A stretch of 64,000 nucleotides of DNA from Malacoraja senta. Taxonomy: Eukaryota. This document shows positions 1 through 64,000 of this stretch, one piece after another. Below the pieces are notes generated by a model that worked only from the letters and a program-made list of their open reading frames with translations, made no database searches and was not told the DNA's origin. The stretch covers positions 12,276,001 to 12,340,000 of the forward strand of contig CM075983.1 of assembly GCA_038087875.1 (NCBI GenBank). Reading direction: 5' to 3'. Position 1 is the stretch's first letter. Every line of letters begins with the position of its first letter. Made by a program: the position numbers and the translations under genes.

Positions 1-570
1 TCAAGTGTGTCTTTACCTTTGGCCAAGCTCAGTATGAAAGTATTAATGCTTATGGCATGAGTGACAGCACAACGAGTGCAAACACTTGGAAAATTACAAA
101 TAGACAGTATGGAAGTAACTGAAGATAAGGTTACATTCTATATCTATGACCTACTAAAGCAAATTAGGCCAGGTGTGACAGGATTTAAAATTATGCTAGC
201 AGTATATCCAAATGATCCTTGTCTCTGTATTAAGACATATTTGTTACAATACATTGAGGTCACAAAGAATTTGAGAAATACGGAAACTGGGTTGTTGATC
301 ACACACAAGAAACCACACAAGAGAGTTTCAATACAGACTATTTCCAGATGGATAAAAGAAGTCTTAACAGCTGCTGGTATTAACACTTATGTTTTTACGT
401 CTCACTCGACTAGGGCAGCAGAAACGTCGACGGCCAGGGCAAAAGACGTCCCCGTCGACCATATCCTCGCAGCCGCCGGGTGGTCCAATGAGTTGATGTT
501 TCAACATTTTTACCATCGGCCTATTGTTAATGCGGGATTGTTTGCAGAAACTATTTTAAGTTCTGTGTAA
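1..570 (+). pseudogene. Tyrosine recombinase (DIRS YR) C-terminal part
   Basis: ORF 61..570 contains HSTR (HxxR), AAGW and FYHR (catalytic Tyr region). The upstream frame has a TGA at 58-60 inside the L(M)ALV(T)AQR motif. Confidence 0.9.
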
Positions 571-1085
571 ATTCCTCTGGTTTAAAGGGGATCTGATTCA
601 TTTCATTATTGAAATGAATTACTGCATTTGTGGTACAAATGTTATTATGAATGCATGATTGATTATTTCTCGTTCCGAGTCAATCAATGCAGTGAGAAGC
701 CGGGATTGATCTACGGCATGAAATCACAAAGCTTTAAAATCTTCACGTAGTCACTTACGTGACTCCGAAGTAAAATAGTAAGATTAAACAAGAACTTACC
801 TAAGTTTGAAGTTTGATCTTTATTTTATGAGGAGTTACGTAGGTGATTACGTGCCCGCCACGACCCTACCCTCTATCATAAAGGTCAGATGGAAGTTCTT
901 GTATTACTCGTTTTATTATGAGACTATATTACTTCGGTTGTTGTTTTTTGTGATTTCACACCGCTGCTTTGAAGATTGACACGCAGGCGCACTGGCGGGG
1001 TTCTTCACGTAATCACCTACGTAACTCCTCATAAAATAAAGATCAAACATCAAACTTAGGTAAGTTCTCGTTTAATCTTACTATT
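1..1085 (+). mobile_element. DIRS1-like tyrosine-recombinase retrotransposon, 3' part (runs off the left edge)
   Basis: YR C-terminus at 61-570, followed by an internal complementary region (740-853) and a right ITR (977-1085). 776-853 is the reverse complement of 1006-1085. Termini are nearly identical to those of the complete element at 10118-14926. Confidence 0.93.
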
Positions 1086-1229
1086 AACACACTGTTGCAA
1101 AATTATATTATTACAATCATCTTACATTACATCCGCATAACTGTAATAATCATATCTAAACTTAGCACTTATAATGGTTCATTCCACTCATCTTCCTTAA
1201 ACCAAATACATTACCCCTTGCTTTATGTG

Positions 1230-1740
1230 TTATCCTTTTCCGTTCTCTTCTGTGTAAATTGCACACTCTTTCTAATCACTCTAGCTCTACCTGTATCTCT
1301 GCCTCTTCCCTTTTTAAATATCCTAATCTAATTTGCAGATTTCTTCCTGTTCTTGATATTCTGCTAAAGTTAACATTTCCTCTGTTTCTGTTCCTTATTT
1401 GTAGGTGGGATCTGACACATGACTGCAGGTTTTCGTTTTTCAGCAGCTTCCTCTGTCGCTCAATTTCCTGGCGCTGCATATTTATCTGATCTTGTTGTAT
1501 AATAACATTCTGCAATGCATGACCATTTGTCCATTGCTCAGTGAAGGAAGCTCCATGCTGGACTACAGTGAAGTGTCCTAATCGCAATCGGTCCTGCATA
1601 CTTTTGTCTCGACCGACAAGCCTCTCTTCTATAGACTTTTCTATTAACAGCTTTTTGCTCATCGTCACTCATTTATTTAACCGTTCTTTGTATCGTTTAA
1701 GCCTTTTCTGTTGTTCATCTATTTGTCTTCTTAAATCACC
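1230..1740 (-). other. TLK2: Captured tousled-like kinase 2 (TLK2) coiled-coil coding fragment, intronless
   Basis: [60 protein letters not shown]..(KRKP..EQKQRK)..([12 protein letters not shown])..[29 protein letters not shown] matches vertebrate TLK. VTMSKK, RDKSMQ and EQKQRK favour TLK2 over TLK1. No kinase domain is present. Confidence 0.9.
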
Positions 1741-2800
1741 TTTCTGTTTATTCATCAAGAAGTAGGATCTATATTGTCTTTGCAATACAACAGTGGCTTT
1801 CATTTGCGCTCCGTATAATTTTCTTACTACATAAGCACGGTAGTGAGACTGCACTACAACTGCTGTATAAATCAGTTTGAGGAAGTCTTTCCTATATCAT
1901 TTAAGCCTTTTGTATCGTTTAAGCCTTTTCTGTTGTGCATCTATTTGTCTCCTTAGGTCTTTCCTATACCAACTCATACGGAGTACTGACTGCATTTTTA
2001 CAGTAGCTCTCTTTTGCTTAACCCACTGCCAAACCACCATACTCTTGTAGGCAGCCTGAATGGTAATAGTTGCATACCTCATTGACTGATATTGCACAAA
2101 CTGGGAATGCCCTATTTTGCATGCTTTGTACCATCTCTGGATCGAAATGACTGCTTGTCGTATAGCTCTGTACCGTACCCTTAATTGGTAACCATGGTAT
2201 GCAGCTTGCAGAGTGACTACAGCCGCCTTTTGCATCAAGAAATGCTTTCTTGTAATGCACATCCTTATGAATGACTTAATATGGCGTGCTGCCTTGATTT
2301 TCTCAACCAATTCTCTGGCTTTAATACCACGGTAGAAGGCCTGAATACAAACCACTGCTTTTCTCAAACTATTATAATGTCTCACTTGGACATCTCTTAT
2401 CTGGCAAGCTCTGTATCGTTGCTGTACCGCAATGGCAGACCAGCGTAGTTTCTTGAAATACTGACGCTGTTTATGCATCTGATAATAAGTCTGTATGACC
2501 TTGGCAGACTTGTGCATGCACCGCAATTGCTTTCGAACAACCATTCCTCGGTAGGCAGCCTGAAGCAGTACAATGCTTCTGCGTGCCTTCATGTAAGTCT
2601 TGCGATCACTTTCCATTTGAAGGTGTGCCCTATAATGGGTTTGTACTATTATAGCTGCTAATTTCATTGCCTTGTATTGACGGTATACTCTGTGCCTTCT
2701 AAATGCTGCTTGTATTACCGTTGCTGCCTTCTGTTTGTTCTGGATCTCTCTCCGTACCTTCATACCCCTGAATGCAGCTTGAATTGTTAGGGTTGCCCTT
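1741..2800 (-). other. ASPM: Captured ASPM IQ-repeat coding fragment (14 IQ motifs)
   Basis: IQxxxRGxxxR-type motifs; the first seven are spaced 23-23-27-23-23-27 aa, the short-short-long higher-order pattern typical of the ASPM IQ region. Confidence 0.85.
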
Positions 2801-2838
2801 TGGATGGCAATTTCCCTTTTCCTTTGACTTCTGTCACT

Positions 2839-2984
2839 TTGCATTTGCCCTTTGTCCCTTTGCACTTGACCTTTGCCTTTTGCACTTTACCTTTGTCCTT
2901 TTGCACTTGACCTTGGTCCTTTTGCACTTGACCTTGGTCCCTTTGCACTTGACCTTTGTCCTTTTGCACTTGACTTTTGTCCTT
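2839..2984 (-). repeat. 21-bp tandem repeat x7 encoding (Q/K)VQ(K/R)D(K/Q)G
   Basis: Units of the form TTGCACTTGACCTTTGTCCTT; the unit at about 2860-2879 is only 20 bp long. Confidence 0.95.
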
Positions 2985-3039
2985 TGAGGGACTCTCTGCC
3001 CTCTTTAGTTCAGGCTCCTTGCCTCTGGATGCCCTTGGA

Positions 3040-3293
3040 GGTTTTGGCGAGAAATGAGCCATTAATGCCTCCTTACACTCCTCGTAAATTTTATCTGTGG
3101 GCTTTGCTGGCCGCAGTAACACACGTAAGGTCTGATAACCCTCTCTTCCTAAGCCTAATATGAACCATGCTCTCATCTTCTCCTCTGCAGCGATATCATT
3201 GGAAATGAAACAAGCCTCCAAGACTTCGGTCCATTTCTCAAAATTACACCCAGATTCTAACTGGGGCACGTTTCCTACAATTTGAAAAGCCAT
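3040..3293 (-). pseudogene. Gypsy (Mag-like) gag N-terminal fragment
   Basis: MAFQIVGNVPQLESGCNFEKWTEVLEACFISNDI..RAWFILGLGREGYQTLRVLLRPAKPTDKIYEECKEALMAHFSPKP fits the Mag-clade gag start (W..Y.E..E..F.AN.I...L..L..P.KP....Y......L..HF.PKP). Confidence 0.8.
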
Positions 3294-3589
3294 GCTACCT
3301 GTTGCTATTCAGGTGCACTATATTCTGTTCTCTCACTGTGTTTTCTGCATTAGACTTAATCCTTTTACACAAAGTGATCCAGCCCACAGACTATTACTAA
3401 TTCTTATAATAATAGATTTTTACTATTAACCAACATTTTATGTTAATAGCCAATTAGAACATTTTAAACCATATTCCTTCTATGCACACATATTTACTAT
3501 TATTAACAGTGACGAATGCATTACATTTAAACAGTCCTGCTTTTACTGTGTCCATGCATTTCATTCACAAAGGGCTTTTATTATGAAGG

Positions 3590-4650
3590 ATTTCACAGCT
3601 CCAGCTTGTGGCCTGTGGACTCTGGTGCATCCTCGACCTCTCGAGCTGTTCCCACTGGTACCTTTGCTGATGGCCTCACCGGACCTCCACTTTTCCTGCT
3701 TTTGCTGGCTCCCCCGGGCTTCACCGTTACTTTTGCTGCCGCTGGCTCACTGCCAAGTCGACTCCTGCTGCTCCGCTGACTTGTCTGCCCGCTGGCTCCA
3801 CAGCCCTCCTGGCTGCTACTGGACCCGCTACGTGGCTCGTCGCTGGCTCCCGTGGACACCCTGCGGAAGGTAAGTCACTCCTGGTTTCTGCTGCTGGTCC
3901 CCGCTGCTCCAAGCGTCGGGACTGTGCCTCTCTCGTGGTAGGCTTTCTCCACTCTCGGCCGTCTCCCACGACTGGGCTTTCTCTGCTTTCGGCCGTCTCC
4001 CGCGACCGGGCTTTCTCCGCTTTCTCCCCCGTCCGGGCTGACTCTGCTCCCGACCGGCTGAAGTGCTTGAGTGCTGTGTCCCGCTTCTCTCGCGCGGACC
4101 CACTCTTCGCTCGGGGCCGGACTCCCTTTCACATCCGGTCTTTCCCCGCTCTCGGCCATCCCTTGCGACCGGGCTTTCACGGCTCTCGGCTTCTCTCCGC
4201 TTCTCTCGCGGGCCTGTCCGCTTTTCTGCTCACAGTCGGGCTGACTCTACTCCCGACCGGTCTTTCACTCCTCACGGTCGTCTCTTGCGACTGGGCTTTC
4301 TCTCACATCCCGGCCAGTTTTTTTTTTTTACTCTGCTGGTCCGCTTCTCAGGCGGCCGGCTTTCTCCCTCGACTGGGCTGACTCTTCTCCCGGCCGGGCT
4401 GACTCCGTTTCGTCGGTGGCTTCACCGGACCTGTCCGTGGCCTACCCGGTACTAGGCCCTCACTCGACGTCGGTGGCGGCTCCTGGGCCTGGCTGTGGGC
4501 TACACGGCCCTGGAACTCACCCGAAGTCGGTGGCGGCTGCTGGGCCTCTTCTGCCCCTTTGCCGTGGCTGCACGGCCCTGGAAAACGTTCCAGGTAAGTT
4601 GACACCGTTGCTGTCCTGCTGGTTAGACTTCCAGCTTTCAGCTGCATTCT
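3590..4650. repeat. GC-rich degenerate repeat region in the leader of the chimeric LTR element
   Basis: Recurrent GGCTTTCTC and GGGCTGACTCT..TCCCG.CCGG motifs, plus two related units of about 55 bp at 4470-4585. Confidence 0.65.
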
Positions 4651-5162
4651 TCGGTGACACTTACTTACTGCCCCACTTGTTTTCCTTGCTTCCTGTTCCG
4701 ACCTTTCTTTTCTTTGGCTCCAATTCAAAACCATTTGGCGCAAAATCTTTTTGCTTGGTGCCGTTCCACTTTGTTTCCAAACACAACCTCTTATTTTTAC
4801 CTTTTTTTTCTCTTGACAACCCTTCTACTTTGTTCTTTTCTGTTCTTTTATCCTCATTGCCTCGTTATCCTTGTTGTGTGTTCTGGTGCAACAATTCACC
4901 TAAAACTTAGCTGTACAAAGATTATTCAGTTTGCCGCCTTGTACAGCTGATGTTTTTGTAGATTGATGATGCATGTGAACCAATCACACTTAGCCAGCAC
5001 CACTAACTCCACCCCATTATAACACTTATACTAACGCCCATTCCCAGCACAGTTAGTTGAAGTAGCTAGGATGAACTGACAACACCTTGTTTTGTAATGC
5101 TGCCAAGTTACAGTGCTGATTAAAGATGTGTGTAAATCTTATACAGTCTCAAGTGATTTACA

Positions 5163-5181
5163 TGGTGTCAGAAGTGGGATT
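5163..5181 (+). promoter_or_regulatory. Primer-binding site complementary to the tRNA-Leu(CAA) 3' end
   Basis: TGGTGTCAGAAGTGGGATT lies directly after the 5' LTR and is the complement of ...AATCCCACTTCTGACA-CCA. Confidence 0.85.
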
Positions 5182-5978
5182 TTAGAACATCAAAGGCATC
5201 CTGGTGTTGCTGGAACCATGACCATGCAGTGTCCTTTTTGGTCAGCTGCCGCAGTGTGGAGCTTAGTTCGCTGAGGTTCGGTATGAACTTTCCGAGATAG
5301 TTTACCATGCCCAGGAAACGTTGCAGGCCTTTCACGTCAGTGGGTGCAGGCATTTCTGTGATGGCAGTAGTTTTCTTCGGATCGGGTTTGAGGCCATCAG
5401 GGGTGAAGATGTGGCCGACGTTGGAGACCACTGGAACCCTGAACTTGCACTTGTCAGGATTGAGCTTGAGGTTGATCTTGACAGCACGCTCCAAGATGAG
5501 CCTGAGATTGTGGTTGTGTTCCGCTGCGTCTTTACCATAGACTAGGATGCCGTCGACAATAATGGTACAAGGCAGATCCTCGAATAATTGCTCCATAGTT
5601 CTTTGGAAGACTTCACTGGCGGAGTTGATCCCGAATGGCATTCTCAGAAACTTATATCTGCCGAATGGGGTGGCAAATGTGGTGAGGTTTGATGACTTCT
5701 TGTCCAGCGGTATCTGCCAGAATGAGTACTTTGCATCTAGGACAGAAAATAGGGTGGCCATTCCGATCTTTACCGCAACATCCTCTACTGTCTTCATGGG
5801 ATGGTGTGGGCGCTTAATGGCAGTGTTCAGGTCTTTGGGATTAATGCACAGGCAGATTTCATTATCTCCCTTCTTGACTGTGGCAACCATGGTTGAGACC
5901 CAGTCGGTGGGGTCGCTGACTGCTTCAATTACGCCTTTGGAGACCATGTCCTTCAGCATAGAATGAACCCTGACAGTC
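5168..5978 (-). pseudogene. Gypsy reverse transcriptase fragment (antisense to its own LTRs)
   Basis: PTDWVSTMV, DLNTAIKR, SVLDAKYSFWQIPLD, TTFATPFGRYKFLRMPFGI, IIVDGILVYG (catalytic DD changed to DG), LQRFLGMVNYL. Confidence 0.95.
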
Positions 5979-5979
5979 A

Positions 5980-6720
5980 CAGAGTAATGGACTCGCTGAA
6001 CGCGCTGTCAGAAGCGCCAAGCACTTGCTGGAGGGAGCGCGCATTTCAAAGTCAGATGTCTATCTCGATCTCCTGAATCTCAGAAACATCGCCAGAGACG
6101 GAACCTTGGGGTCACCAGCACAGCGTCCGCTGTCGAGGGTGACGAGGTCTCCGGTCCCCGTCGCACAACAGCAGCTGGTCCCTCGGGTGTTGAAGCCCGC
6201 CACTGTCCAGCAACGTCTCCAAGAGAAGCACGACATCCAGAAACGGTCATACGACAGTTCCAGCAGACCTCTACTGCCGGGCCAGGTCGTCCTTCTACGA
6301 ACTTCAACTGGACATTCTCGTCTGGGCATTGTTGTACGCCCGACTGATGAGCCGCGATCATACCTTGTGGACTGTGAGGGAGCGGTATACTGGAGAAGTC
6401 GACAACACCTGCTTGCTGTGAAGGAGCCCCGACCACCGCCTGCTGATCCCTATGCTCCGCCGCTCCAGTTCCAGCCGCCTTTTGCAGTGTCTCCTGCCCG
6501 TCCCCGCATGCCTTGCACCCCCTCACGTCCCTCGGTCTCCACTAACCACGGGGTTACACCCACCGCATGTTTCCCCTCTCGGTCACCACAAGCCTCTCCC
6601 GTGCGATTTTCACCTTCAGCCTCTCCGCCTAATCCTTCAGTGGAGAAAGGGGATGGTTGGGTCCACACGAGCTCGGGCCGTGTTAGTAGACCACCAGACA
6701 GGTATGGCGAGTATGTTTAA
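5980..6720 (+). pseudogene. Gypsy integrase C-terminal fragment
   Basis: CAG AGT AAT GGA CTC GCT GAA CGC = QSNGLAERAVRSAKHLLE (final catalytic Glu region), then GSPAQ, PRSYLV, and a terminal TSSGRVSRPPDRY motif. Confidence 0.9.
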
Positions 6721-7112
6721 TACACTTCCTTTCCACATTTAATCTTTAGGGGGAAGGATGTAGATTGATGATGCATGTGAACCAATCACACTTAGCCAGC
6801 ATCACTAACTCCACCCCATTATAACACTTATACTAACGCCCATTCCCAGCACCGTTAGTTGAAGCAGCTAGGATGAACTGACACCTTGTTTTATAATGCT
6901 GCCAAGTTACAGTGCTGATTAAAGATGTGTGTAAATCTTATACAGTCTCAAGTGATTTACAGTTTTAAATTACAGTCCCCGGCATAGAGGGATCTGCAGG
7001 CCTCTCATGTCCAGCTCGCAAACAACTGCGACACAACTCCGTATCTACTGTTTAAACTGTTAAACAATCCTGCGTGTTGCAAAACAGTCCTGCGGGTGAG
7101 TTCACGAACTCT

Positions 7113-7130
7113 ATCCCATCCTCGTCGCCA
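7113..7130 (-). promoter_or_regulatory. Primer-binding site complementary to the tRNA-Ser(GCT) 3' end
   Basis: Minus strand TGGCGACGAGGATGGGAT; the plus strand ATCCCATCCTCGTCGCCA equals the tRNA-Ser(GCT) 3' end plus CCA. It lies 2 nt from the LTR end. Confidence 0.88.
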
Positions 7131-7132
7131 AT

Positions 7133-7296
7133 TGTAGTGTATTTGGGTACTTGGAACTGACTTAAAAGAACTCTCAGATACAGCAGTAAACTGACAAGCT
7201 TCTTTATTCTAGGACGCCACCTTGAGTCTACTCTAGCACATGCGTCCCCTTGCACAAGACATAACATATGCTAATTATATTACATACATCACAACA
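7133..7296 (-). mobile_element. 5' LTR of the chimeric Gypsy element
   Basis: Minus strand begins TGTTGTG and ends CACTACA (imperfect terminal IR), contains AATAAA (TTTATT near 7203), and is followed by the PBS. The partner LTR is not in the window, so the outer boundary is inferred. Confidence 0.78.
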
Positions 7297-7334
7297 TTGA
7301 AACAGTACATTAAATCAGTTCATAAGTTCGGTTG

Positions 7335-7627
7335 GGGCAGCACAGTGGCGCAGTGGTAGAGTTTACCTTACTGCGCCAGAAACCCGAATTCAATTCTGAC
7401 TATGGGCGCTGTTGTACAGAGTTTGTACGTACTTCCTGTGACCGCGTGGGTTTCCTCCAGGTTTCCTCCCACACTCCAAAGACATGTAGGTTTTTTAGGT
7501 TAATTGGCTTCGGTAAAAATGTAAATTGACCCTAGTGAGTAGGATAGAGCTAGTGTACGGGGTGATCGCTGGTCGGTGTGGACTGAAGGGCCTGTTTCCT
7601 CGCGGTTTCTCAGGTCTAAAGTCTAAA
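7335..7627 (+). mobile_element. HE1-type tRNA-derived SINE
   Basis: A-box TGGCGCAGTGG, V-SINE-type core (TTTCCTCCCACACTCCAAAGAC), CR1-like tail GAAGGGCCTGTTTCC ending in CTAAA repeats. Confidence 0.85.
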
Positions 7628-8094
7628 TAGCCTGTTTCAATTGGGCCATTGAAGTACAATCTCTTGCACATGTCTAAGCACGATGAGCCCGAAGCTCTCA
7701 TAATTGATATACCTGACATTTTAAGTCCCATAAGAATCATGAGCTTAGAAGGAATAGCTTAGATGGGACATCTTGGTCAGCATTGGGCGAAGTTGGGCCG
7801 AAGGGTCTAGCTTCCATCCAGTATGACAACACCACAAACAGTGCTAGAAATGGCTGTGGGATTTTCCAATAAGTTGTAAGAAAATATGTTAATCAAATCA
7901 TCATTCCTTCAGCTTTGAAGCTGATAAACAGGGTATTTAGGGGGAAGTACTGTTGGTTCGATTTCTGGTCCATGGGATTAGTTCCAACAAACCAAAGATC
8001 ATTATATATTCACCTACATATGGACAGCACCTCACCTCCATTTTGGAAGAGAGTCTATTGAAGCAAAGCAACCACCGAATCAACTGGAATCAAA

Positions 8095-8406
8095 AGGAAT
8101 TAATATTGATTTCTCTAATTTCAGGTCGCCCCGGCATTCCCTGTCTTTCTATCCCTCCCCCATCCAAGCCGTGCTAGCTTCTCATTTTCACCCAACAAAC
8201 AGTTAACAATGGCCTGTCTCCTTTATCATCGTTACTTTTTACATATCTTTCACTCATTGGTCTTTATCTCTCTACATCGCCTATATCTCTCGTTCCCCTT
8301 ACCTCTAACCAGTCTGAAGAAGGGTCTCGACCCAAAGCGTTACCCATTCCTGCTCTGCAGAGATGCTGCCTGTCCCGCTGAGTTACTCCAGCATTTTGTG
8401 TCTATC
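8095..8406 (+). mobile_element. Penelope-like element 3' end and pseudo-LTR
   Basis: ORF end GINIDFSNFR, then a 3' UTR and the CTGAAGAAGGGTCTCGACCC...GAGTTACTCCAGCATTTTGTGTCTAT repeat, the same layout as 52557-52840. Confidence 0.75.
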
Positions 8407-8899
8407 TAAGGCAAATGTTAAATTGTAATTAAATTCTTATCATTAATGAGTCAGGCAATGCCCTGCTGAGCACAATACTCATGGAAAGCTTTGGGCAAAC
8501 AAATGTGCTTTGATGATCTCATTCTAATATTTACCTTGTCTCATAAGACTCGTAAAAGACGAGTGAATTATTGAAAGTATTCCTGCAAGGGGTAGGTTTA
8601 ATTTTTCAACATGATTGTCTCTCCTTTCCTGATGAGGGAAAGTGTCGAGCTGGGAGTCTGCTCCATAGAAGCTGGGCTAATATCCAACACATTACTGAAG
8701 TATCCATTGGCATCACAGAGGTGTGCAAACACATTATTCTACCGCTGAAGTCCAACACCTGCAACTCAACACTACCCTCAATTGACATCCACACACAGTT
8801 TTCTGCAGGGAGAGGAAAAAGGTTTGCAATTCTTTTACTGGAGAGGGATTACAGCGTGGACAAATACAGCAGTCAGGCTTCACACGGCAAAGTTTCACA

Positions 8900-9194
8900 A
8901 GGTGGTGCAACGTTAGAGTTACTGCCTTCCAGCGCCAGTGACCCGGGTTCGATCCTGACAATGGGTGCTATCTGTACTGAGTTTGTACATTCTCCCCGTG
9001 ACCTGCGTGAGTTCTCTCCGGGTGCTCCGGTTTCTTCCCACATTCCAAAGACGTGCAGTTTTATAGGCTAATTGGCTTCTGTGAATCATCCCTATTGTCT
9101 AGGATATAAATAGTGTAAAGGTGATCGTGGTCGGCACGGACTCGGTGGGCCGAAGGGCCCGTTTCCAGGCTGTATCTCTAAACTGAACTATAAA
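8900..9194 (+). mobile_element. HE1-type SINE
   Basis: B-box GGTTCGATCC, conserved core and tail. Confidence 0.85.
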
Positions 9195-9279
9195 CAGAGA
9201 AACGAGTGGCCAGATGATTTGTTTACAGAAAGGTTGGTTGAGAGAAGGCTGATGAATATGTCGTGATGCTGTCAATCAG

Positions 9280-9492
9280 ATAACACCAGGGGAATTTTCG
9301 TGTCCATCGGAACGGGCTGACAAGGCCTCATTTTAAAGTCAAAATAAGATCCTAGTTTAACAGCTTGTGTGACAGGCATGCAGGATTCCCCCAGGTACTG
9401 CACCACAACGTCAATCTAGATTACATGCTCAAGGCAGCAAAAAGATTTAATCCCACAAAGTCTGACTCATAGGCACTTTGCTACCGACCAGG
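9280..9492 (-). mobile_element. Old Deu-domain SINE (AmnSINE/SacSINE-like), degenerate
   Basis: GTACTGCAC...GTCAATCTAGATTACATGCTCAAG...TCTGACTCA.AGGC resembles the antisense Deu-SINE core and tRNA-like head. Confidence 0.5.
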
Positions 9493-10624
9493 TCAAGAAG
9501 ATATCACTAATTGGAAGTGTGGCATCTGGCAGATATCTCCAGCCTATCTCAGTGCCACTTGTTCTTACAGGTACTTGTAGGTACAGCTACAGATACTTGT
9601 ACTGAACTGTATACAAAGATGAATTTCACTGTACCTCGGTACAGGTGACAAATAAAGTTCCATGCCAAGTACAAAAAAAAGTTGAAATCAGCGATTCAGT
9701 ATAGTCCAGGTGTCCAAACCAAAACTATCTGAGACGCGTGTCTGAACTACCTGAAGAAGGTTCCTGAACCAAAACATCCATTTCCTCCACTGAAGCTGCC
9801 TGACCCGTTGAGTTCTTCCAGTATTTTATGCTTCACTCAAGATCCCAACATCTGCAGTTCCCTGTGTCTCTCTTACCTACTATTATCTTAATTGGTATAA
9901 AGCATCCAAAATAAAGAAAGTTTAACAAATGAATCCTTTGGTCAAAGAGAGGGCAATGCAGAGGTTAAGCTTGAGGGGTAGTGGATACTGTGCAAGTCCT
10001 ACCTCGAAAGAGGAGATGGAGATGAAGGTTCCAGCTGGATATGGAGATGGCCACTCTCGATGGCCTGATAGCACATGTGCTTACTCACACTGATGCGATG
10101 TGCTCATCATTGATCTTTTTTACTTCGGAGTCACGCGAGTGACTACGTGAAGAACCCCGTCAGGGCGCATGCGCGTCATTACGTCGGACGCATTGGTGCG
10201 AACGGCAGCGGGAGCACGGACCTCCTGCTGCAGGTGAGTAATTACAGCTCCACCAAAGTCGGGGAGACTTTGGAGGAGTTAGAGAAAAGTAAAGACATTG
10301 TTTCTGTGTGTTTTTTCCCCACATACAGGAACAAGGAAAAGGTGCAGGCTGCTGCCGACAAGGAGAGAGAGAGCTGCGGGACGCAGTCTCTGAAAGGCAG
10401 CCTGTCACCTCGGGGGAGTCGCAAGCCGGTAGCGGTGCGGCGACAGACTTGGCAAAGTGCCCAGCCGGGTACACAGCCAACGCCAGTCGGGCGGTCGGCA
10501 TAAGCCAAGTCTGTCAGGGCTATAGACTCCGCAGAGTCGGGCCACGAGAGTCCCGTCGGGGACAGGATACCGTTCCCCAGCGGTTATCCAAAAGGAGCAG
10601 CTCATACAGGGGCTGCTCCACAGA

Positions 10625-10870
10625 GACGCTCCAGGAGGAGTTGTGTGGGCGGGAAGCCATAGGTAAGGCTTCGCTGGCAGTGCCTAGGAGAGGTCTGCTT
10701 CATAAAGCCACACTCCAGGAGGAGTTGTGCAGGCGGGAAGCCTTAGGGAAGGCTCCGCTGGCAGTGCCTAGGAGAGGTCTGCTTCATAAAGCCATACTCC
10801 AGGAGGAGTTGTGCAGGCGGGAGGCCGTGGGGACGGCTCCGCTGGCAGTGCCTAGTAGAGGCCTGCTTGA
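10625..10870 (+). repeat. 84-bp tandem repeat x about 3 in the DIRS gag region
   Basis: CTCCAGGAGGAGTTGTG.. recurs near 10629, 10713 and 10797 (28-codon period). Confidence 0.9.
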
Positions 10871-11699
10871 AAGCACCCTCTTTGCAAGAGGTGAGTGCAG
10901 AAGGGCAGATACGCTCTGACCCTGAGTCCGACGACTTCCAAAGGGAGGGCAGGCAGCTGTCAGAGCTGACACCGTGTGCAGCACGGTTTGCCATGTCGTC
11001 GGATGCTGGTGAGCCTCTGGGTGAGGAACTTGCCACCAGCATAAATTACCAAGTCTCACATCAGCTACAGGAGCTGACAATGGATGAGACAGTAACAAAG
11101 TATGAAGCCCCAATCAACTGTGGACTGTTAAAAGTTCCTATTGGGAACAGGAAGAATTGGGGCAAGATGGGCATACTAATGAAAGCCCAGGAGCATGTGA
11201 AGCTCCAGCATATTTTTAAAGTTGCTGGCATCTGGTATAACGAGCTTTGCCAGGATGGTGGATGGAGAGGCCATGACAAATTACAACAAAAGGCGCTATT
11301 GTGGAGTGCCCACTTTGAGATCAACTGCCTCCGCAAGATGCGATTAGACCAACCATCAATGCTAAATATGCTTCACTCTGCCAGCCTGGCACAGTGCAAC
11401 CGGCACAGCTGTTTGGCGAGGATTTCGCACAGCAGGTGAAGGAGCTGGAGGAGGAGGCTAAGACGGCAGCCACATATTCACCAAAGCGGAAGTATCCCTA
11501 TAAGGGAGCAGACTGGTCCGGGCAAGGGACTAGTCCAGCTACGATGCAGCGCAGTTGGCGTTTGGCTGTAGCACCGCCACGGAGGTGAGATATCCAGCTC
11601 AAGGCCGGGGAAGAATGCCAGGTGGTAAGGAGGTAAGAGGGTCTGGTTCTCATGTAGACAGATCTAATGTGATACAATTAAATGTTTACCTCAGTTTAT

Positions 11700-13300
11700 A
11701 CTGAAGGTTATTCAAGGGCATCAAATAAAGCTTAATGCAAATTCTGATTTACCCATGCAAGATGTTCCAAAAAAGGAGTTTGACTTCAGTATCACTGAAC
11801 AATTGGAAGTTCAGCTGGAACTTGCAAGCTTATGTAATAAAGGTGTAATTGCTAAGGCAGTTTACCAAAGCCATCAGTTTGTGTCCAATATCTTTCCCAG
11901 ACCAAAAAAGGATGGGGGGATGCAGAATTATACAGACCTGAATAGTCTTAACCCTTTTGTACGGTATAGACATTTTAAGATGGAAACGTTTGTGAAGGAG
12001 ATCTTAAAGATGCGGATTCAGTGTCTGTTCATTTGCAGGATAGAAGATTTAAAATTCAGCTGGATGGGGCAATTATGCCAATACAATCCACTGCCTAATG
12101 GTTTCTCTTCAGCTCCTAGAGGGATTACAAAGTTGTTAAAACCTATTCTAGGCATGATGAGAAGTCAAGGTCATGTGTTCATGGCTTAACTAGATAATAT
12201 CTTGATTGTAGGACAATCAAAGGAAACAGCTGAAGCATCAGTGGCAGTTGGTAAAAACCAATTTTTAATTGGGCTTTATAAGCTATCCAGATAAATCTAA
12301 ATTTATACCTGTGACACAAATTGACTAGTTGGGTTCACAATGGACTTAATCAACATCATTGTGACCTTGCCCAGGCAAAAAAGGGTAGAGCTAATTAAGA
12401 GCTATATCAAGTTAATTGCTAACACACAGCCTTCAATTAGCCAGGTGACAAGTCTGCTGTGGTAATGGCTGGCAGCATTTCCAGCAGTTCAATATGGCCA
12501 CTTTATTATCTACAATTACAAAGGTCAAAGGAACAAGCATTGAGGATACATTGGGGTCATTATAATAGACCTATGCTTCTATCAATAGAGGCTGTTGCTG
12601 ATGTACAATGGTGGATTCAGCATGTGTCCACTAGTAGTTCCAAAGTGTTATTGGACCAAGTTTCCATGATTTGCAGACAGATGTCAGAGCACTTGGGTAG
12701 GGTGCTACTGATACAAGATCCAGCGGTGGAGACAGATGAACATTGCTTCTGCAAACATGGGGAATTAACCAAGAGTATTTTATGGACTCGAGGCTTATGG
12801 CACTAACTAAACTAGTTTGCATGTGCAGTGCAAACTAGACAATACTACAGCAGTTGCTGATATGAATCACATGGGTGGAATCAAATCGTTATCATGTGAC
12901 AGGTTGGCAAATACAATTGGACCTGGAGTAGGGATAGAGAGATTTGAATTGGAGATATCTATCTCCCAGGGAAACTTAATGTAGTACCAGATGGCAGCTC
13001 ACGAAAATTCCATCATAACACAGAGTGGATGTGGAACCAGGATGTGTTCAAGAACATAGTATTTCTATATGGAAGGCCAAAATATGTTTCATAGGCACCA
13101 GATCCAGGGGCAGTGACAATTGATGCTTTTTCACTAAATTGGGATGATATGTGTGTGTACATTTTCCCACCATTCTGCCTCATAGGACGGTGTTTGAGAA
13201 AATCAAGCAGGATGCCGCTTCAGGGGTTTTGGTGATACCAAATTGCCTGATTCAACCATGGTTTCCTTTGATGTTACAGATAGCGATCCAACCTCTTTTT
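11700..13300 (+). pseudogene. DIRS RT / RNase H / MT-like pol remnants
   Basis: FVSNIFPRPKKDGG, RHFKMET, LPNGFSSAPR, A*LDNILI (degenerate YLDD), LDNTTAVADMNHMGG (RNase H), and DAFSLNW..YIFPPF..QPWFP (methyltransferase-like). Confidence 0.88.
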
Positions 13301-13399
13301 GCTGATTCCAAACAGTAGGAATTTGCTGGAGCATCCAGTAACGCATTAAGTTCATCCGTTATGTGATGGTATGGATCTGTTAATTTGCAGGTTTTAAGA

Positions 13400-14376
13400 A
13401 TGCCTTACATTGGTCGAGGACTTTCTAGGCCAACGGTGGATATACTCACTGCAGCCTGCAGAAACAGTACTCAAGAACAGTATATGACTTATGAAAAAAA
13501 AAAAAAAAAATGGGAACAATATTGTGTTCAAAAGAATATTCAATATGATACTGTAGTTATTGAAAATGTGTTAGAGTTTATCTACACTTTATTATGATGT
13601 GGGTCTTAGCTATACTGCTATCAATACAGCTAGAAGTGCTTGGTCGGCATATCTTGTAATAGGTACACGGACACAAAGTATAGGTTCTCACCCTCTCATA
13701 TCTAGGTTGATGAAAGGAATTCCAAACCGCCTAAGCCTAGGTATATGGTAATCTGCGAGGTAAGTGTTGTTTGTAACATACTTCGTCATTGGGTCCCTGT
13801 CAAGGCTATAACTTTGTTAAAATTAACCATGAAATTGGCTATGCTAATGGCATTGGTGTCAGTACAGAGAGTGCAGACTTTCCAAAAAACTTCAGTTCGA
13901 GAGAATGGAAGTGAATACAGAGAATGTTCTGTTTTATATTTCTGACCTGCTCAAACAAAGCAGGCCAGGTGTGACAGGTCTTAAGATTGTGTTCTCAGCA
14001 TATCCTACAGCTCCATGTTTATGTGTAAGGACACATTTGTTACATTACATTGAAGCCGCAAGGGCTTTAAGACAAGAAGAAACAGGATTATTTGTCAGTT
14101 ACAAGAAGCCAACATAAAAGAGTGGCAGTTCAGACTATCTCAAGGTGGTTAAAGCAAGAGTTGGTTCAGGCAGGAATTAACATTTATGTGTTTACATCTC
14201 ATTCCACTAGCGCAGTAGCAACATCCGCGGCCAGGGCGATGGACGTTCCCATCGACCATATATTAAAAGCCGCAGGTTGGAAAAATGAACTTGTGTTTCA
14301 GCAATACTACCATCGGCCGATTGCCGATGGAGGGCTGTTTGCCAACTCAATATTGAGTGCTGTTGCTATTGTTTAA
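13400..14376 (+). pseudogene. DIRS tyrosine recombinase
   Basis: LMALVSVQRVQT, TISRWLK, SHSTS (R lost), AAGWK..VFQQYYHRP. Homologous to 61..570. Confidence 0.9.
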
Positions 14377-15839
14377 AGTCTGTTTTCAATACTGTTTCAT
14401 TCTGTTTCGTTTGTTGCCCTACATTAAGAGGGTTTATTGGTTGTTTTATGACCAAAAATAAAACTGTTTTGTTTTTGCATGATATGCAATGTCATGTTTA
14501 CAGCATTATTGATGATACTCAGAGTCAATCGATGCAGTGAGAAGCCGGGATTTTGATCTGCGGCATAAAAATCACAGAGCTTTAAAATCTTCACGTAGTC
14601 ACTCACGTGACTCCGAAGTAAAATAGTAAGATTAAACGAGAACTTACCAGTTTGAAGTTTGATCTTTATTTTATGAGGAGTTACGTTGGTGATTACGTGC
14701 CCGCCACGCCCAACCCTCTCTCATAGAAAAAAGGTCATAATGGTAGTTCTCATGTTGATCATCTTAATATGTTACTTCAATTATGGTGTTGTCTGTGATT
14801 TCATACCGCTGCTTTGAAGATTGACGCGCATGCGCCCTGATGGGGTTCTTCACGTAATCACCAACGTAACTCCTCATAAAATAAAGATCAAACTTCAAAC
14901 TGGTAAGTTCTCGTTTAATCTTACTAATAAACTGTAGTGTTGAAGGCTGCATTTCCCGTGGAAACAATGGCTCAAATCATACCTTTATCCAACAATTCGG
15001 GGGGGGGGGGGCGGGGCATCAAGGTGCTTCCTGAAGGTCAGCCCATTCCGGACTTGCATGTTGCAACTCAGAAGTCAGGAAGGCACTGGACACACCATGA
15101 AGTCCACAGGTCGTCATGACCTGCAGACAGAGGAAGTTAGTTTAATTTGGCATCATATTCTGTGCAGACATCGTGGGCCGAAGGGCCTGTTCCTATGGTG
15201 TACTGTTCTATGTTCTATGTTTTATGATATCAAGTCTTTGACAACCTTGGATTGGGCTTCAATTCCACTACCTGAGACCCGGTCACCACTTATATTCCTT
15301 TCCACTTAGTATGCCAGTGAGGCCTCCATGTAATGGTGGCTACAATAGATAGTTGCAGCAACAAAACCAGTAGAAAGGCTATTTTTTATGGCATGGGCTG
15401 TTCAAAGTAGGATTCAAGCCTTTGAGATTGAGTGTGAGAAATGTTTGGTCCAAATACAAATGCATAATCTATTGCTACAGACAGTTAATCGTATTTAGAC
15501 TCCTCTTCCACTCCTCATAGGATTGTAAACCTACCTTATCCTGTCTGGATGCTGTGCATTTACAGTATTATATAGTTTGTGTGCAAGGTCCAGGATCTGC
15601 ACTTATTCTTTGTTTCTATAGCATCAGCTAACCCATTAAATGGAAGTGTATTAGTCTATTTAATGATATGTGGATCATGTGGGAGAGCTGTTTTGCTTCA
15701 TGTTCATCCAGATATACATAGAAGGAACAAGATTTTTATGTACATTTAGTTCTCTTGCGTTTTGTGTATAGTTAATTGTATTTGAGTGCTACAATATCTT
15801 CATTTATTGAATTAAATCAACTTGTCATAATGTCATCCG

Positions 15840-20252: not shown

Positions 20253-22187
20253 ATGCCCATTTGTGCAATGTTGGGGGTGTGGGAGCAGCACGTATCACCT
20301 GAATAAGTGGATGCAGAATGTGTGTAAAGGGCCTGTCCTACTTACGTGACTTTTCAGCAAACTGTCTGCGACCTTCAAGCTTGGGGGCATTCGCCTGAAA
20401 AACCACGAGCTGGATCAACTGTGAGCACAGAACACACACACACACATACACAAACACATCGCAAAGGCGGGGGCCAGGGAAAGAGGGGGAGCGCTGTCTG
20501 AAATTCACATGGTGCAAAGCCAATGTGATACCCGCGATGAACAGGAAGGTTAAAGACGGCTAGCACAGTGAACGGAAAGTTCTTTAAAAGAGTGGGGAGG
20601 GGGGAGACAGGAGAAGGGGGGAGAAGGGGAGAGAAAGGGGAGGGGAGAGAATGGGAGAGAAGGGGGGAGAAGAAACCAGGCAACGTTTAATAAGCCAGAG
20701 ATACACAGCTGTGAAGTTTAGCGGGCATTTAACATTACCGGTCAGTTTTCCTTGATTCTGAAAACTCGTGCTTACGTTTTTTTTTTCCCAATAAGCCAAT
20801 TAAAATGCCCGGTCAGCAAAGGAGATTACCCATGGCTACCTCGACTACCTACAACGACATGGCGACACTACCACTGCACTACGAGTTCAAAAGTATCGAT
20901 TTTCTCCATGCCTCGCAGAAACATTTTCAACATGTTGAACATTTTTCCACGACCAAACTGAGGCCGCGAGTAGTAACCACTATGCGGGAACTCCTCTCGA
21001 CCATGAAGGAGTCTTACCAGTGACCACCTACGACCATGTGTCGACCATGCTGCGAGCTTGTGGCGAGTGCAGAGTCTCCTAAACTCGCCAATAAGGTCGC
21101 CATAGTGGGACAGGCCCTTGACAGCCACAACTGTAAATTTGCAATGGGAAACTGTTTCTGCCCACCTCCCTTCAAACTCTTCCCATTTCCGACAGAGAGA
21201 AGGGATGAACCAGCCCAGTTGCGTTGGTCCAAACTGCTCAACCGAAAGGATGGGAAAGGCAAGAATTATCAGCCTGACCCGAAAGGCAACAGCCGCGTGT
21301 GCTCTAAGCACTTTGTGGAAGGCGAGCCAACAACACTCAATCCGCACCCGGTCCTGAATCTTGGTTATTTGTTATCAGACTCCCCAATGTACCCACATGC
21401 ACTCTCTCGCAGAGATGGAAAACCCTCAAATAAAAGAAGAAAGTCGGTGACAGTAACGCAAAGCAATGTTGACGAACATGTTGAGGATGGACCAGACAAC
21501 AAGCGTTTATGAGCTATTGCTGTAGATCCTGCTTATGGGTACAAATGCAGCTGTCAAGAGAACTGTTAATGCATGGGATGCATCCAAAAACAGAAGGACA
21601 TAAACAAACTGACAGACAAAGTTGAAATGTTGGAAGGCAAGGTAAATGAATTGAAACTAAAACTGAAAAAAATCATTTTTGTAGCAATATCAAGACCGAC
21701 CAAAATGTGAGAAGATTGACAGGGCTTTCTTCGAAGGAAGACTTAGACAACCTATGCGAGTATGTGAAGCATAAAGCAAGGAAAATACGATATTGGGAAG
21801 GGAGAAAAAAAGTAATCAGTACTAAAATACCAAGAACATTTAAACAATCGCCAAAGAACTGGTTGATGAAGCTACGCCTTGGGCTGTTGATGGTGTTTCT
21901 CATGACTTTGTTTGAACTCAGTGGGGGTACATGTTCTAAAATATTCAATACTTGGATTAAATTCCTAGCCACCCAACTGAAACCCCTGATTTTCAGGCCA
22001 GATCGTGATTTGATAAGGTCCAAGAAGGTGGCCAATGTCCGCATTCATGTTTAACGGGCCATAGGTCGTCTAAAGTTGTTTAATATCCTGAGAAATACTT
22101 TACCCATCACTTTAGTTCCACCCCTTAATGATATTTTCACCGTCTGTGCAACATGATGTAATTTACTAGCCTCCATTGGTGGGTAAA
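20253..22187 (+). pseudogene. THAP-domain DDE transposase, interrupted and internally deleted
   Basis: MPICAM..GCGSSTYHLNKW.|.LFPFP..RW..RVCSKHF..PHPVL (THAP), LMKLRLGL..SGGTCSKIFNTWI (HTH), and VANVRIHV*RAIGRLK.FNIL..VCA..CNL (DDE C-terminus, E changed to stop). The core carrying the two Asp residues is missing. Confidence 0.85.
20328..21118. mobile_element. Harbinger-like MITE inserted in the THAP domain
   Basis: TIRs AGGGCCTGTCCTACT / AGTGGGACAGGCCCT with a 3-bp TSD TAA/TGA. Removing it restores the THAP frame (..QNVC-DSHNC..). Confidence 0.88.
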
Positions 22188-63500: not shown

Positions 63501-64000
63501 CAAGAGATATTCATGCAATAATCTGAGACGTCTGTTTAATATACTGCACTCACATAAAACCGAAGAACAAGATTTATCAATTATTTCACTGGATGCAGAA
63601 AAAGCATTTGATCAAGTGGAATGGGATTACTTTGTCAAAGTATTGCAAAAATTTCAAATGGGAGAGATATTAACTAATAATATTTTGTCCCTGAAATTTC
63701 AATTATCAAGGGGAAATAGACAGGGATGTTCATTATCATCTCTGCTATTTGCCCTTGTAATAGAACCGTTAGCGGAAAATATTAGAATACATCCGAATAT
63801 CCATGGGTATAATACAAAATACTCAAATAATAAGATATCATTATACGCAGATGATGTACTACTATATATCACAAAATCACAAATCAGTATGCCAAATATA
63901 TTAAATTTAATAGAGGAATTTGGATCCTTTTCAGGATATAGAATAAATTGGAATAAAAGTGAAATTATGACGATTAAACCTCAAGACCCAACACACCTGT
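60525..64000 (+). mobile_element. L1-clade LINE: ORF1 C-terminus, about 1 kb spacer, decayed ORF2 (APE-RT) running off the window
   Basis: ORF1 end LFRDYPYEIAKKR..YGIIYPAKMIITYNG..FNDP..* at 60738. ORF2 ATG 61773 with SWNIRG, IFLQETH, NIYAPN, GGDFN, SRIDY, SDH, GKTPGPDG, LDAEKAFD, RQGC, LYADD; stops and frameshifts present. Confidence 0.93.

Follow-up and report, generated by a model that had tools for sequence, protein, structure and literature searches.

The window, a 64,000-nucleotide stretch of the genome of the skate Malacoraja senta, carries on its minus strand one decayed copy from a high-copy skate family of non-autonomous Ty3/Gypsy LTR retrotransposons, which has captured pieces of two host mRNAs, ASPM and TLK2. 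The copy has the hallmarks of an LTR retrotransposon: 161-bp LTRs, a PBS, a PPT before the 3′ LTR and a 5-bp TSD. The features are listed below in the order of the element's own strand.

7298-7294: left TSD AATGT, adjoining the 5′ LTR
7133..7293, minus strand: 5′ LTR, 161 bp, TG...CA, 6/161 mismatches to the 3′ LTR
7113..7130, minus strand: PBS for tRNA-Ser(GCT), assigned by complementarity with a genomic tRNA-Ser(gct) gene at its 3′ end
3294..4956, resuming at 7112-6962, minus strand: family leader, GC-rich and internally repetitive, 75-95% nucleotide identity to other copies
4957..6961, plus strand: nested, unrelated 2.0-kb LTR element with its own 5-bp TSD, absent from the other family copies compared
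5171..6007, minus strand: RT fragment of the nested element (Pfam RVT_1, E=1.3e-19)
3042..3293, minus strand: Gag N-terminus, 84 codons, recognized from Atlas clusters and nucleotide identity to relatives L127-L129
2813..3041, minus strand: linker with a 21-nt (7-codon) tandem repeat, frameshifted in the window copy, in the place of two CCHC zinc knuckles of older copies
1960..2808, minus strand: ASPM IQ array, motifs 1-12, 65% amino acid identity to stingray ASPM 2591-2881
1899..1959, minus strand: TLK2 stub of 62 nt in an in-frame internal duplication, 86% nucleotide identity to a host TLK2 exon, with a stop at 1899
1741..1898, minus strand: ASPM IQ array, motifs 13-14, from Pfam IQ, the motif list and the stingray ASPM alignment
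1226..1739, minus strand: spliced TLK2, five exons of the coiled-coil region, kinase domain absent, stops at 1671 and 1278, three cancelling indels, 88-93% nucleotide identity to host exons
1088..1225, minus strand: parent-derived 3′ tail including TAA 1164-1162, 71-83% nucleotide identity to the 3′ region of a pol-bearing relative on contig C5966
1..1087, plus strand: end of a 4.8-kb DIRS-type element that separates the tail from the 3′ LTR (Pfam Phage_integrase at 61-567)

The 3′ LTR, displaced by the DIRS-type insertion, lies ∼3.8-4.0 kb before the window start (G000:C7:12272027-12272187) and is followed by the same AATGT. An earlier note on this DNA had placed the 5′ LTR at 7296-7133; the end at 7133 is correct, while the true start is 7293 and the three extra bases belong to the TSD. 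The tRNA-Ser PBS named there matches 15 nt of the 3′ end of the tRNA-Ser(GCT) gene plus the complement of CCA. The ATG at 3293 indeed opens a Gag N-terminus of 84 amino acids, whose nearest Atlas clusters are DUF7041/retrotransposon gag (score 0.95) and which is 80-81% identical in nucleotides to the gag of three relatives (L127-L129) that show protease sequence. The linker, described as seven 21-bp units, does contain the 21-nt tandem repeat, in 8.4 copies at 2986-2813 according to TRF.

All 14 IQ motifs of the initial description are present, with spacings of 23, 23, 27, 23, 23, 27, 22, 23, 23, 27, 22 and then 23 (Pfam IQ, E=1e-25). The TLK2 stub inside this array falls at a repeat spacing of 222 nt and is missing from simple older copies. 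The downstream TLK coiled-coil sequence, likewise correctly recognized, matches PDB 5o0y at E=6e-34, and the last ∼20 codons of the fusion frame, up to the predicted TAA at 1164-1162, derive from the 3′ region of the parent element. The frame was said to be broken by one deletion and three stops, all of which are present, but three further indels in the TLK2 part had been overlooked; these cancel out, with ∼35 residues read in other frames. Of the stops, that at 1278 is subfamily-wide (32/34 copies of the window's subfamily), and those at 1899 and 1671 occur in 4/66 and 1/59 copies, respectively.

The statement that no pol is visible in the window holds for the captured-gene element but not as worded, given the RVT_1 match at 6007-5171. 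This RT was rejected as the family's pol, as it sits within the nested 2.0-kb LTR element that interrupts the leader and has LTRs at 4957-5162 and 6759-6961 (96.6% identical), a PBS, the inverted RT fragment, an integrase C-terminus and a PPT. An Rfam search of window positions 1-12000 gave no match.

The skate family, its parent and the donor genes

The family occupies at least 129 loci in the skate genome, counted from IQ and gag matches and leaving aside LTR-only matches (solo LTRs and a possible closer autonomous partner). In the genome search, 129 scored IQ candidates led to 131 matches; the gag search gave 150, a few of which are pol-bearing relatives. Copies of 4.3-4.8 kb are made up entirely of leader, gag, IQ, TLK2 and tail, with pol absent between the LTRs, which bears out the proposal of a non-autonomous Gypsy element in which ASPM and TLK2 mRNA pieces replace the whole of pol and the greater part of gag. 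Flanks are distinct between copies apart from 8 duplicates, indicating multiple independent insertions, and a perfect 5-bp TSD surrounds 18 of 52 two-LTR copies. The expected replicating family is thus evident from TSDs and locus number. Among the 34 remaining two-LTR copies, 8 have a PPT-like stretch preceding the 5′ LTR (tandem units), and many belong to older subfamilies whose LTR ends are poorly defined by the window query.

The family extends beyond this species. The RefSeq protein XP_055489032.1, annotated as a Leucoraja “ASPM homolog”, is a gag-IQ member, and 14 sequencing runs from 8 organisms and 9 studies, one possibly the source sample, hold 0.34-0.43 of the sampled words. These runs, the Leucoraja model and the many loci rule out an assembly artefact. 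A homolog search with the Leucoraja protein, covering lengths of 159-508 aa, matched only itself and is uninformative on range.

The pol-bearing relative on C5966 has the LTR, gag, CCHC block and tail in common with the family. Its gag-PR-RT-RNaseH-IN order is of Ty3/Gypsy type: Pfam identifies zf-CCHC (below cut-off), aspartyl protease and RT_RNaseH, and an integrase core was recognized downstream by eye. No env was seen among the long open frames between its LTRs. Twin CCHC zinc knuckles, present in the parent, are kept by 6 of 94 examined family copies. Mag-clade Ty3/Gypsy elements are characterized by twin CCHC knuckles, a tRNA-Ser PBS and a 5-bp TSD; all of these occur in the family or its parent, making it a putative member of the clade.

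The IQ array best matches stingray ASPM (65% amino acid identity over residues 2591-2881), with the alignment extending to 2950. Six queries did not find the host ASPM gene in the skate assembly, which is not proof of its absence, and contigs of sequencing runs X15 and X18 contain host-type ASPM continuations that diverge from the element at 1743. Family copies annotated as ASPM homologs, such as XP_055489032.1, crowd out searches for genuine ASPM. The TLK2 cargo corresponds to five host exons (G000:C10:14380653-14388572; 88-93% nucleotide identity) joined without introns across four exon junctions, and was therefore captured from a spliced mRNA. TLK1 was rejected as donor, since the captured exons match the TLK2 locus.

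The ASPM-to-TLK2 join has 4 nt shared at an in-frame Cys codon, read partly by eye from the ends of host-type contigs, and the TLK2-to-parent join has an imperfect shared stretch of ∼10 nt. These short microhomologies suggest that RT template switching between co-packaged RNAs may have made the joins. An ordinary Gypsy element hit by separate processed-pseudogene insertions was rejected as an explanation, as the junctions are common to copies with differing flanks and neither poly(A) nor TSD is found at the cargo ends.

Selection on the reading frame and on the peptide

The open frame has been under selection in the lineages that replicated. Non-CpG variants from 83 copies were classed as shared (at least 3 copies) or private, and stop-creating changes make up 2 of 166 shared variants, where ∼13 are expected, versus 57 of 743 private ones (p=0.0008), in a sample that leans toward window-like copies and in which shared variants include recurrent mutations. 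The depletion is seen in the captured parts alone (p=0.003) and after adjustment for transitions and transversions (odds ratio 6.9, p=0.006), and shifted-frame controls show none among shared variants (p=0.86 and 0.57). The signal comes from older copies (p=0.0007), the young clade being underpowered (0/36, p=0.15).

Length changes show the same pattern. Of the small indels, all five that are found in at least 3 copies are net in frame, counting an adjacent +1/-7 pair as one event, versus 19 of 50 private ones (p=0.012). The main IQ-to-TLK2 length classes (128, 278, 350, 479, 497, 521 and 572 nt between anchors) all preserve frame, and 35 of 46 copies hold it through the scrambled part of TLK2. 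The slippage-prone linker is in frame in only 39 of 73 copies, and also in XP_055489032.1. The full frame is present in none of the 84 copies sampled, the longest from the ATG being 477 codons; unsampled copies remain. Where stops have become established they lie close to the 3′ LTR, ∼305 nt away for the subfamily-wide stop at 1278 and mostly ∼140-260 nt away in copies with a 3′-deleted TLK2.

No selection on the cargo peptide was detected. Missense changes are not depleted relative to silent ones among shared variants (OR 1.03, p=0.95), and dN/dS is 0.83 on internal branches (95% CI 0.56-1.3) versus 0.96 on terminal ones. The young clade differs from host TLK2 by 20 missense and 9 silent near-fixed changes, in a stretch that hardly varies across skates, rays and sharks. 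Beside the internal dN/dS of 0.83, weak and non-significant leans toward constraint appear between knuckle-bearing and young copies (38 missense and 20 silent codons), in lineage changes at IQ core positions (1/15 versus 22% expected, p=0.22) and in gag (internal dN/dS 0.29, from 61 codons). An initial deficit of radical changes (p=0.006) was discarded, as a control frame was also positive and adjustment for transitions and transversions left p=0.08, with a control frame at p=0.02. The earlier view that the fusion evolved as coding sequence in a replicating family is thus right about the frame and finds no counterpart in the peptide. A protein needing only length, charge or helicity would leave the same pattern.

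Models for the captured sequence

The element may have arisen from a pol-bearing parent whose gag lost its central part. ASPM coding sequence came to follow the zinc knuckles, with spliced TLK2 behind it and the parent 3′ end last; these joins, made in whatever order, are observed. The lack of pol and the fresh TSDs suggest that the chimera relied on a pol-bearing partner for its copying in trans. It would then have split into subfamilies in which the knuckles were replaced by the 21-nt repeat, IQ/TLK2 units were duplicated in frame, the later TLK2 part was scrambled or deleted and the LTRs changed.

On balance we lean toward the view that the cargo is an in-frame spacer, translation through which would shield the element RNA from nonsense-mediated decay. 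The RNA would serve as both genome and message, with ribosomes starting at the Gag ATG, traversing ∼2 kb of cargo and stopping near the 3′ LTR; an early stop would create a long 3′ UTR, expose the RNA to decay and yield few progeny copies. What would keep the cargo in place is that host coding sequence comes free of stops, and not any ASPM or TLK2 activity. As a precedent, early gag stops in Rous sarcoma virus are described as reducing unspliced RNA via Upf1 (PMC2925335). Purged stops beside freely changing residues make it testable whether RNA surveillance has shaped non-autonomous retroelements; if so, chimeric open frames would be kept alive as raw material for new genes.

A tenable though somewhat unlikely alternative is that the full-length fusion matters to the element as a crude Gag of which only bulk properties are selected. 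Its Gag N-terminus would dock on a partner particle, its basic IQ helices would bind RNA in place of the knuckles and its TLK2 coiled coil would replace the capsid dimerisation region. A coiled coil can substitute for nucleocapsid in retroviral assembly. Dimerisation is reported to be mediated by the TLK2 coiled coils (PMC6023931), the cargo is very basic (82 K/R versus 9 D/E in 355 residues), and the purged stops, the rarity of knuckles and the low gag dN/dS all fit such a protein. However, radical changes are not significantly depleted after adjustment, K/R loss (11/113 shared versus 72/513 private) is matched by a similar lean in control frames, and much of the TLK2 part is deleted or frame-scrambled in several lineages.

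Alternatively, the target could be the host cell: by soaking up calmodulin, or by poisoning TLK2 dimers with a kinase-less partner, the fusion could alter the germline cell cycle or the silencing of chromatin to the element's benefit. The two cargoes are interaction modules, each joined in its native frame, the 14 IQ motifs all remain recognizable, their core positions have changed little (short of significance) and the TLK2 piece lacks the kinase domain. We nonetheless consider this distinctly unlikely: missense changes, including the near-fixed TLK2 replacements, accumulate at the neutral ratio, a benefit in trans common to all copies would place no selection on each copy's own frame, and the captured piece begins within the run of exons that precedes the later coils, so that the first coiled coil may be incomplete. 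The calmodulin- or TLK-decoy role once suggested is unsupported here. None of the sequencing runs in which the family's words occur is on record as RNA; a contig of run X17, whose RNA nature is a guess, spans the IQ/TLK2-stub/IQ joins (1775-2262) and is too weak to show transcription. That either kind of working protein, with host modules replacing lost Gag capsid and nucleocapsid or acting on germline calmodulin or TLK2, powered the spread across skates seems unlikely; if true, a vertebrate retrotransposon would have been rebuilt from cell-cycle genes. It is highly improbable that the cargo is neutral stuffing whose frame only looks kept after a few open-frame master copies happened to found subfamilies, for despite a star-like tree (internal length 0.27, terminal 2.03), an unconstrained peptide and the lack of any complete frame, shared stops are far below expectation, shifted frames gained them normally and large structural variants preserve frame.

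Comparison with known captured-gene elements

Outside subscription journals, Repbase/Dfam and supplements, our search found no published account of an ASPM-carrying skate retrotransposon. Acutely transforming retroviruses carry gag-onc fusions, and like the skate family they are helper-dependent, with Gag fused in frame to host sequence. Transducing retroviruses are marked by env or an infectious helper and by a retroviral RT. No env was seen in the long open frames of the C5966 relative, and the skate family is germline-fixed and gives no sign of selected cargo biochemistry. RSV src and v-Kit are named as captured genes in an account of crocodilian elements (PMC4299795), which, as far as its available text goes, describes CrocERV29 (KIT-ligand) and CrocERV31 (nectin3) as replicating vertebrate LTR elements that carry host mRNA and are common to several species. 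However, these are retroviral ERVs of 6-9 copies with one near-complete gene in a separate ORF under purifying selection (PMC4299795). The skate family instead has two gene fragments fused to Gag and neutral missense change, and purifying selection of the CrocERV kind was not found in its cargo.

LTR-mediated retrocopies in animals are similar in that partial mRNAs take the place of internal genes at points of microsimilarity, sequences from several parental genes may be joined and the products can retropose again (PMC5131818). In the available text of that survey they are young or low-copy loci, the older ones mostly with loss-of-function changes, and none is noted as having reached hundreds of copies while keeping its frame. 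Animal LTR gene capture being described in these sources mostly from single or low-copy loci, the skate case is a successful family with subfamilies in more than one skate species, and its hundreds of copies form a natural experiment that parts selection on an open frame from selection on a protein.

A close parallel is maize Bs1, described as present in 1-5 copies and as translated (PMC13317346, PMC5131818). As portrayed in those sources, it too is a non-autonomous LTR element with several host mRNA pieces in one chimeric frame and junctions common to its copies. We regard the skate family as a new, Bs1-like variant of LTR-mediated gene capture, which differs from the plant element in being a vertebrate Ty3/Gypsy family with at least 129 loci, subfamilies and measurable selection on the frame only.

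The window copy and its neighbours

The decayed element copy in the window reads on the minus strand, with the following parts.

Features of the window copy and of the insertion in its leader
7293-7133, minus: 5′ LTR, flanked by AATGT
Between the LTR and ATG 3293, minus: PBS, then leader (sequence reading)
6007-5171, minus: RT, part of a separate LTR element (2.0 kb) that lies inside the leader
From ATG 3293, minus: Gag, 84 codons (sequence reading)
Between Gag and the IQ motifs, minus: 21-nt tandem (sequence reading)
After the 21-nt tandem, minus: 14 IQ motifs (sequence reading)
After the IQ motifs, minus: TLK coiled-coil sequence (sequence reading)
1164-1162, minus: TAA stop (sequence reading)

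The earlier note had placed the LTR at 7296-7133; the LTR exists, but starts at 7293, next to its AATGT flank. The 3′ LTR lies before the window start, bears the same AATGT, and a DIRS-type insertion of 4.8 kb parts it from the body. The PBS complements a genomic tRNA-Ser(GCT), in line with the tRNA-Ser PBS of the earlier note, and the 84 Gag codons agree with the proposed 85 or so. Among 1.84 billion representatives, the best match of the IQ block is stingray ASPM (65% identical across residues 2591-2881, the alignment running on to 2950), which bears out the reading of 14 ASPM IQ motifs. Likewise, the block assigned to the TLK dimerisation region matches TLK2 in the PDB (E=6e-34) and has no introns relative to five host exons. 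The window had been said to lack pol; an RT is in fact present, although it belongs to the nested element and not to this family.

The nested element (4957-6961, plus strand) contains a PBS, an inverted RT fragment, an integrase C-terminus and a PPT. A 5-bp TSD of its own shows that it moved in this rearranged form, and a related LTR occurs at about 7280-7504 of another fetched locus, L019. Two related DIRS-type elements (69-86% alike), with tyrosine recombinase, RT and inverted terminal structures, occupy window positions 1-1087 plus upstream sequence (locus L031) and about 10100-14930; one of them splits the 3′ end of the family copy. A THAP domain (21024-21509, plus) faces a YqaJ-like recombinase domain (23135-22560, minus), and the two probably form one DNA transposon. 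Remnants of LINE reverse transcriptase/endonuclease, judged by eye to be L1-like and CR1-like, lie at 61900-64000 (plus), 56042-54873 (minus) and 54074-53382 (minus).

A high-copy family and its sources

The family is a real, high-copy capture of two genes by a vertebrate Gypsy family. Genome searches gave at least 131 IQ matches (520 candidates, of which 129 were scored) and at least 150 gag matches of 536 candidates, a few of the latter being pol-bearing relatives. For alignment, 91 fetched copies, mostly from the top of these match lists, were combined with the window; removing eight same-flank duplicates and one low-coverage copy left 83. Typical full copies span 4.3-4.8 kb without pol, and 18 of 52 copies with both LTRs have a perfect 5-bp TSD. 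LTR pairs differ by 3.6% in 13 young copies and 4.4% in five older ones, and the mean pairwise difference within the young clade is 4.1% (n=38 copies). The intact ORF of about 710 residues anticipated earlier was found in none of 84 copies, the longest frame from the ATG being 477 codons.

Eight of the 52 two-LTR copies resemble tandem units. A PPT-like stretch ahead of the 5′ LTR (L014, L028, L037, L038, L043, L066, L074 and L120) suggests, on sequence grounds, tandem units with shared LTRs, like TRIM arrays. How often the 21-nt linker repeat is iterated differs greatly among copies (L033, L050, L101, L122 and others; anchor distance 117-680 nt), and the repeat may derive from the gag sequence immediately ahead of the zinc knuckles.

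A Leucoraja erinacea RefSeq protein labelled "ASPM homolog isoform X1" (XP_055489032.1) is a single-frame gag-linker-IQ product, best matched mainly by young-clade copies at 90-96% of amino acids. Host TLK2 exons mark the present genome as a skate's, being almost the same as the exons of named skates, with three differences from Leucoraja within residues 31-84 (by eye). Because TLK2 differs and the gag-linker-IQ sequence is nevertheless annotated in Leucoraja, the family is common to more than one species.

Among the weaker gag matches were relatives in which gag is accompanied by twin CCHC, protease, RT/RNase H and integrase sequence. The relative on C5966 shares 75-78% identity with the family in the LTR, 81% in gag and 89% in the knuckle block, along with the 3′ tail, and is not the true parent but its sister. 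Downstream of another Gypsy gag relative (L133, G000:C12:7902800-7906800), open pieces that by eye resemble a retroviral integrase end and env apparently represent a separate endogenous retrovirus insertion. At L135 1439-1520, ARAGORN assigns Thr(ggt) to a tRNA gene whose 3′ end is identical to that of tRNA-Ser(GCT); the gene is probably an anticodon variant.

In six of 94 examined copies the knuckles still separate the N-terminal part of Gag from ASPM, the remainder having the 21-nt repeat there; knuckle-bearing L066 and L126 are closest to host TLK2, at 95-97%. The proposed alignment to host genes succeeded for TLK2, whose intronless captured part matches five exons at 88-93%, but six queries, including parts of stingray ASPM, did not find the single-copy host ASPM gene in this assembly. 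Host-type ASPM contigs are present in public runs, and the absence is probably an assembly gap. Host and parent have a short imperfect stretch in common at the TLK2/tail join, and at the ASPM/TLK2 join the two host sequences agree in four bases, which fall on an in-frame Cys codon (ASPM side from contig ends, by eye). These microhomologies fit the model in which template switching underlies LTR-mediated mRNA capture, as set out in the available part of PMC5131818.

Purging of stops and tolerance of replacements

Private variants were taken as post-insertion decay, and those shared by three or more copies as holding an excess of change from replicating lineages. Among variants at non-CpG codons, 57 of the 743 private ones are stops, against 2 of the 166 shared ones (p=0.0008; p=0.003 for the captured parts by themselves), whereas neither frame +1 nor frame +2 differs in this respect. 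After stratification by transition/transversion, an odds ratio of 6.9 remains in frame (p=0.006) and one of about 1 out of frame; adding CpG codons weakens the effect but preserves it (p=0.004). The depletion is significant in older copies, the young clade being underpowered. Stops are thus purged in a frame-specific manner, upholding the claim that the frame was kept in a replicating family. Of the small indels in gag and IQ, all 5 shared ones keep the frame on balance, compared with 19 of 50 private ones, although slips of 3 nt can arise more than once. The frame also survives the large duplications and deletions of IQ/TLK2, and cancelling indel sets in the TLK2 linker differ between lineages. 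The only subfamily-wide stop, at 1278, and the 3′ LTR are some 305 nt apart.

By analogy, we lean towards a model in which translation of element RNA would begin at the Gag ATG, and copies on which the ribosome stops early would lose their RNA through nonsense-mediated decay. Such decay acts in cis, as selection on the frame of each individual copy demands. In Rous sarcoma virus, early gag stops lead to RNA loss by this route, according to the accessible portion of PMC2925335. A single contig spans chimeric joins, but the run it comes from is RNA by conjecture, and expression is unproven.

The main alternative, which we regard as possible but doubtful, is that the fusion is a mini-Gag for which only bulk charge and length count. 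Relative to host TLK2, 20 replacements and 9 silent changes have come close to fixation in the young clade, and gag alone hints at constraint (dN/dS 0.29 on 61 non-CpG codons, 0.59 with all sites). The decoy proposed in the earlier note is unlikely: the frame is kept, but missense and silent changes do not differ between shared and private variants (odds ratio 1.03), and dN/dS, expected below 1, is 0.83 on internal branches with an interval spanning 1 (0.56-1.3; terminal, 0.96). Capture and amplification are established, and constraint on cargo residues is undetectable. A frame open by chance is very improbable beside the shifted-frame controls.

Relation to known captures

The family is provisionally placed in the Mag clade from clade traits (twin CCHC knuckles, tRNA-Ser PBS and 5-bp TSD). 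No description of it was found in the literature searched; closed journals, repeat databases and supplements, outside that search, may hold one. Crocodilian captured genes are under purifying selection in the part of PMC4299795 available, a feature that the cargo described here lacks. As far as the accessible accounts go, the family works like maize Bs1 and the LTR-mediated retrocopies of animals (PMC5131818), and has the tested features of both.
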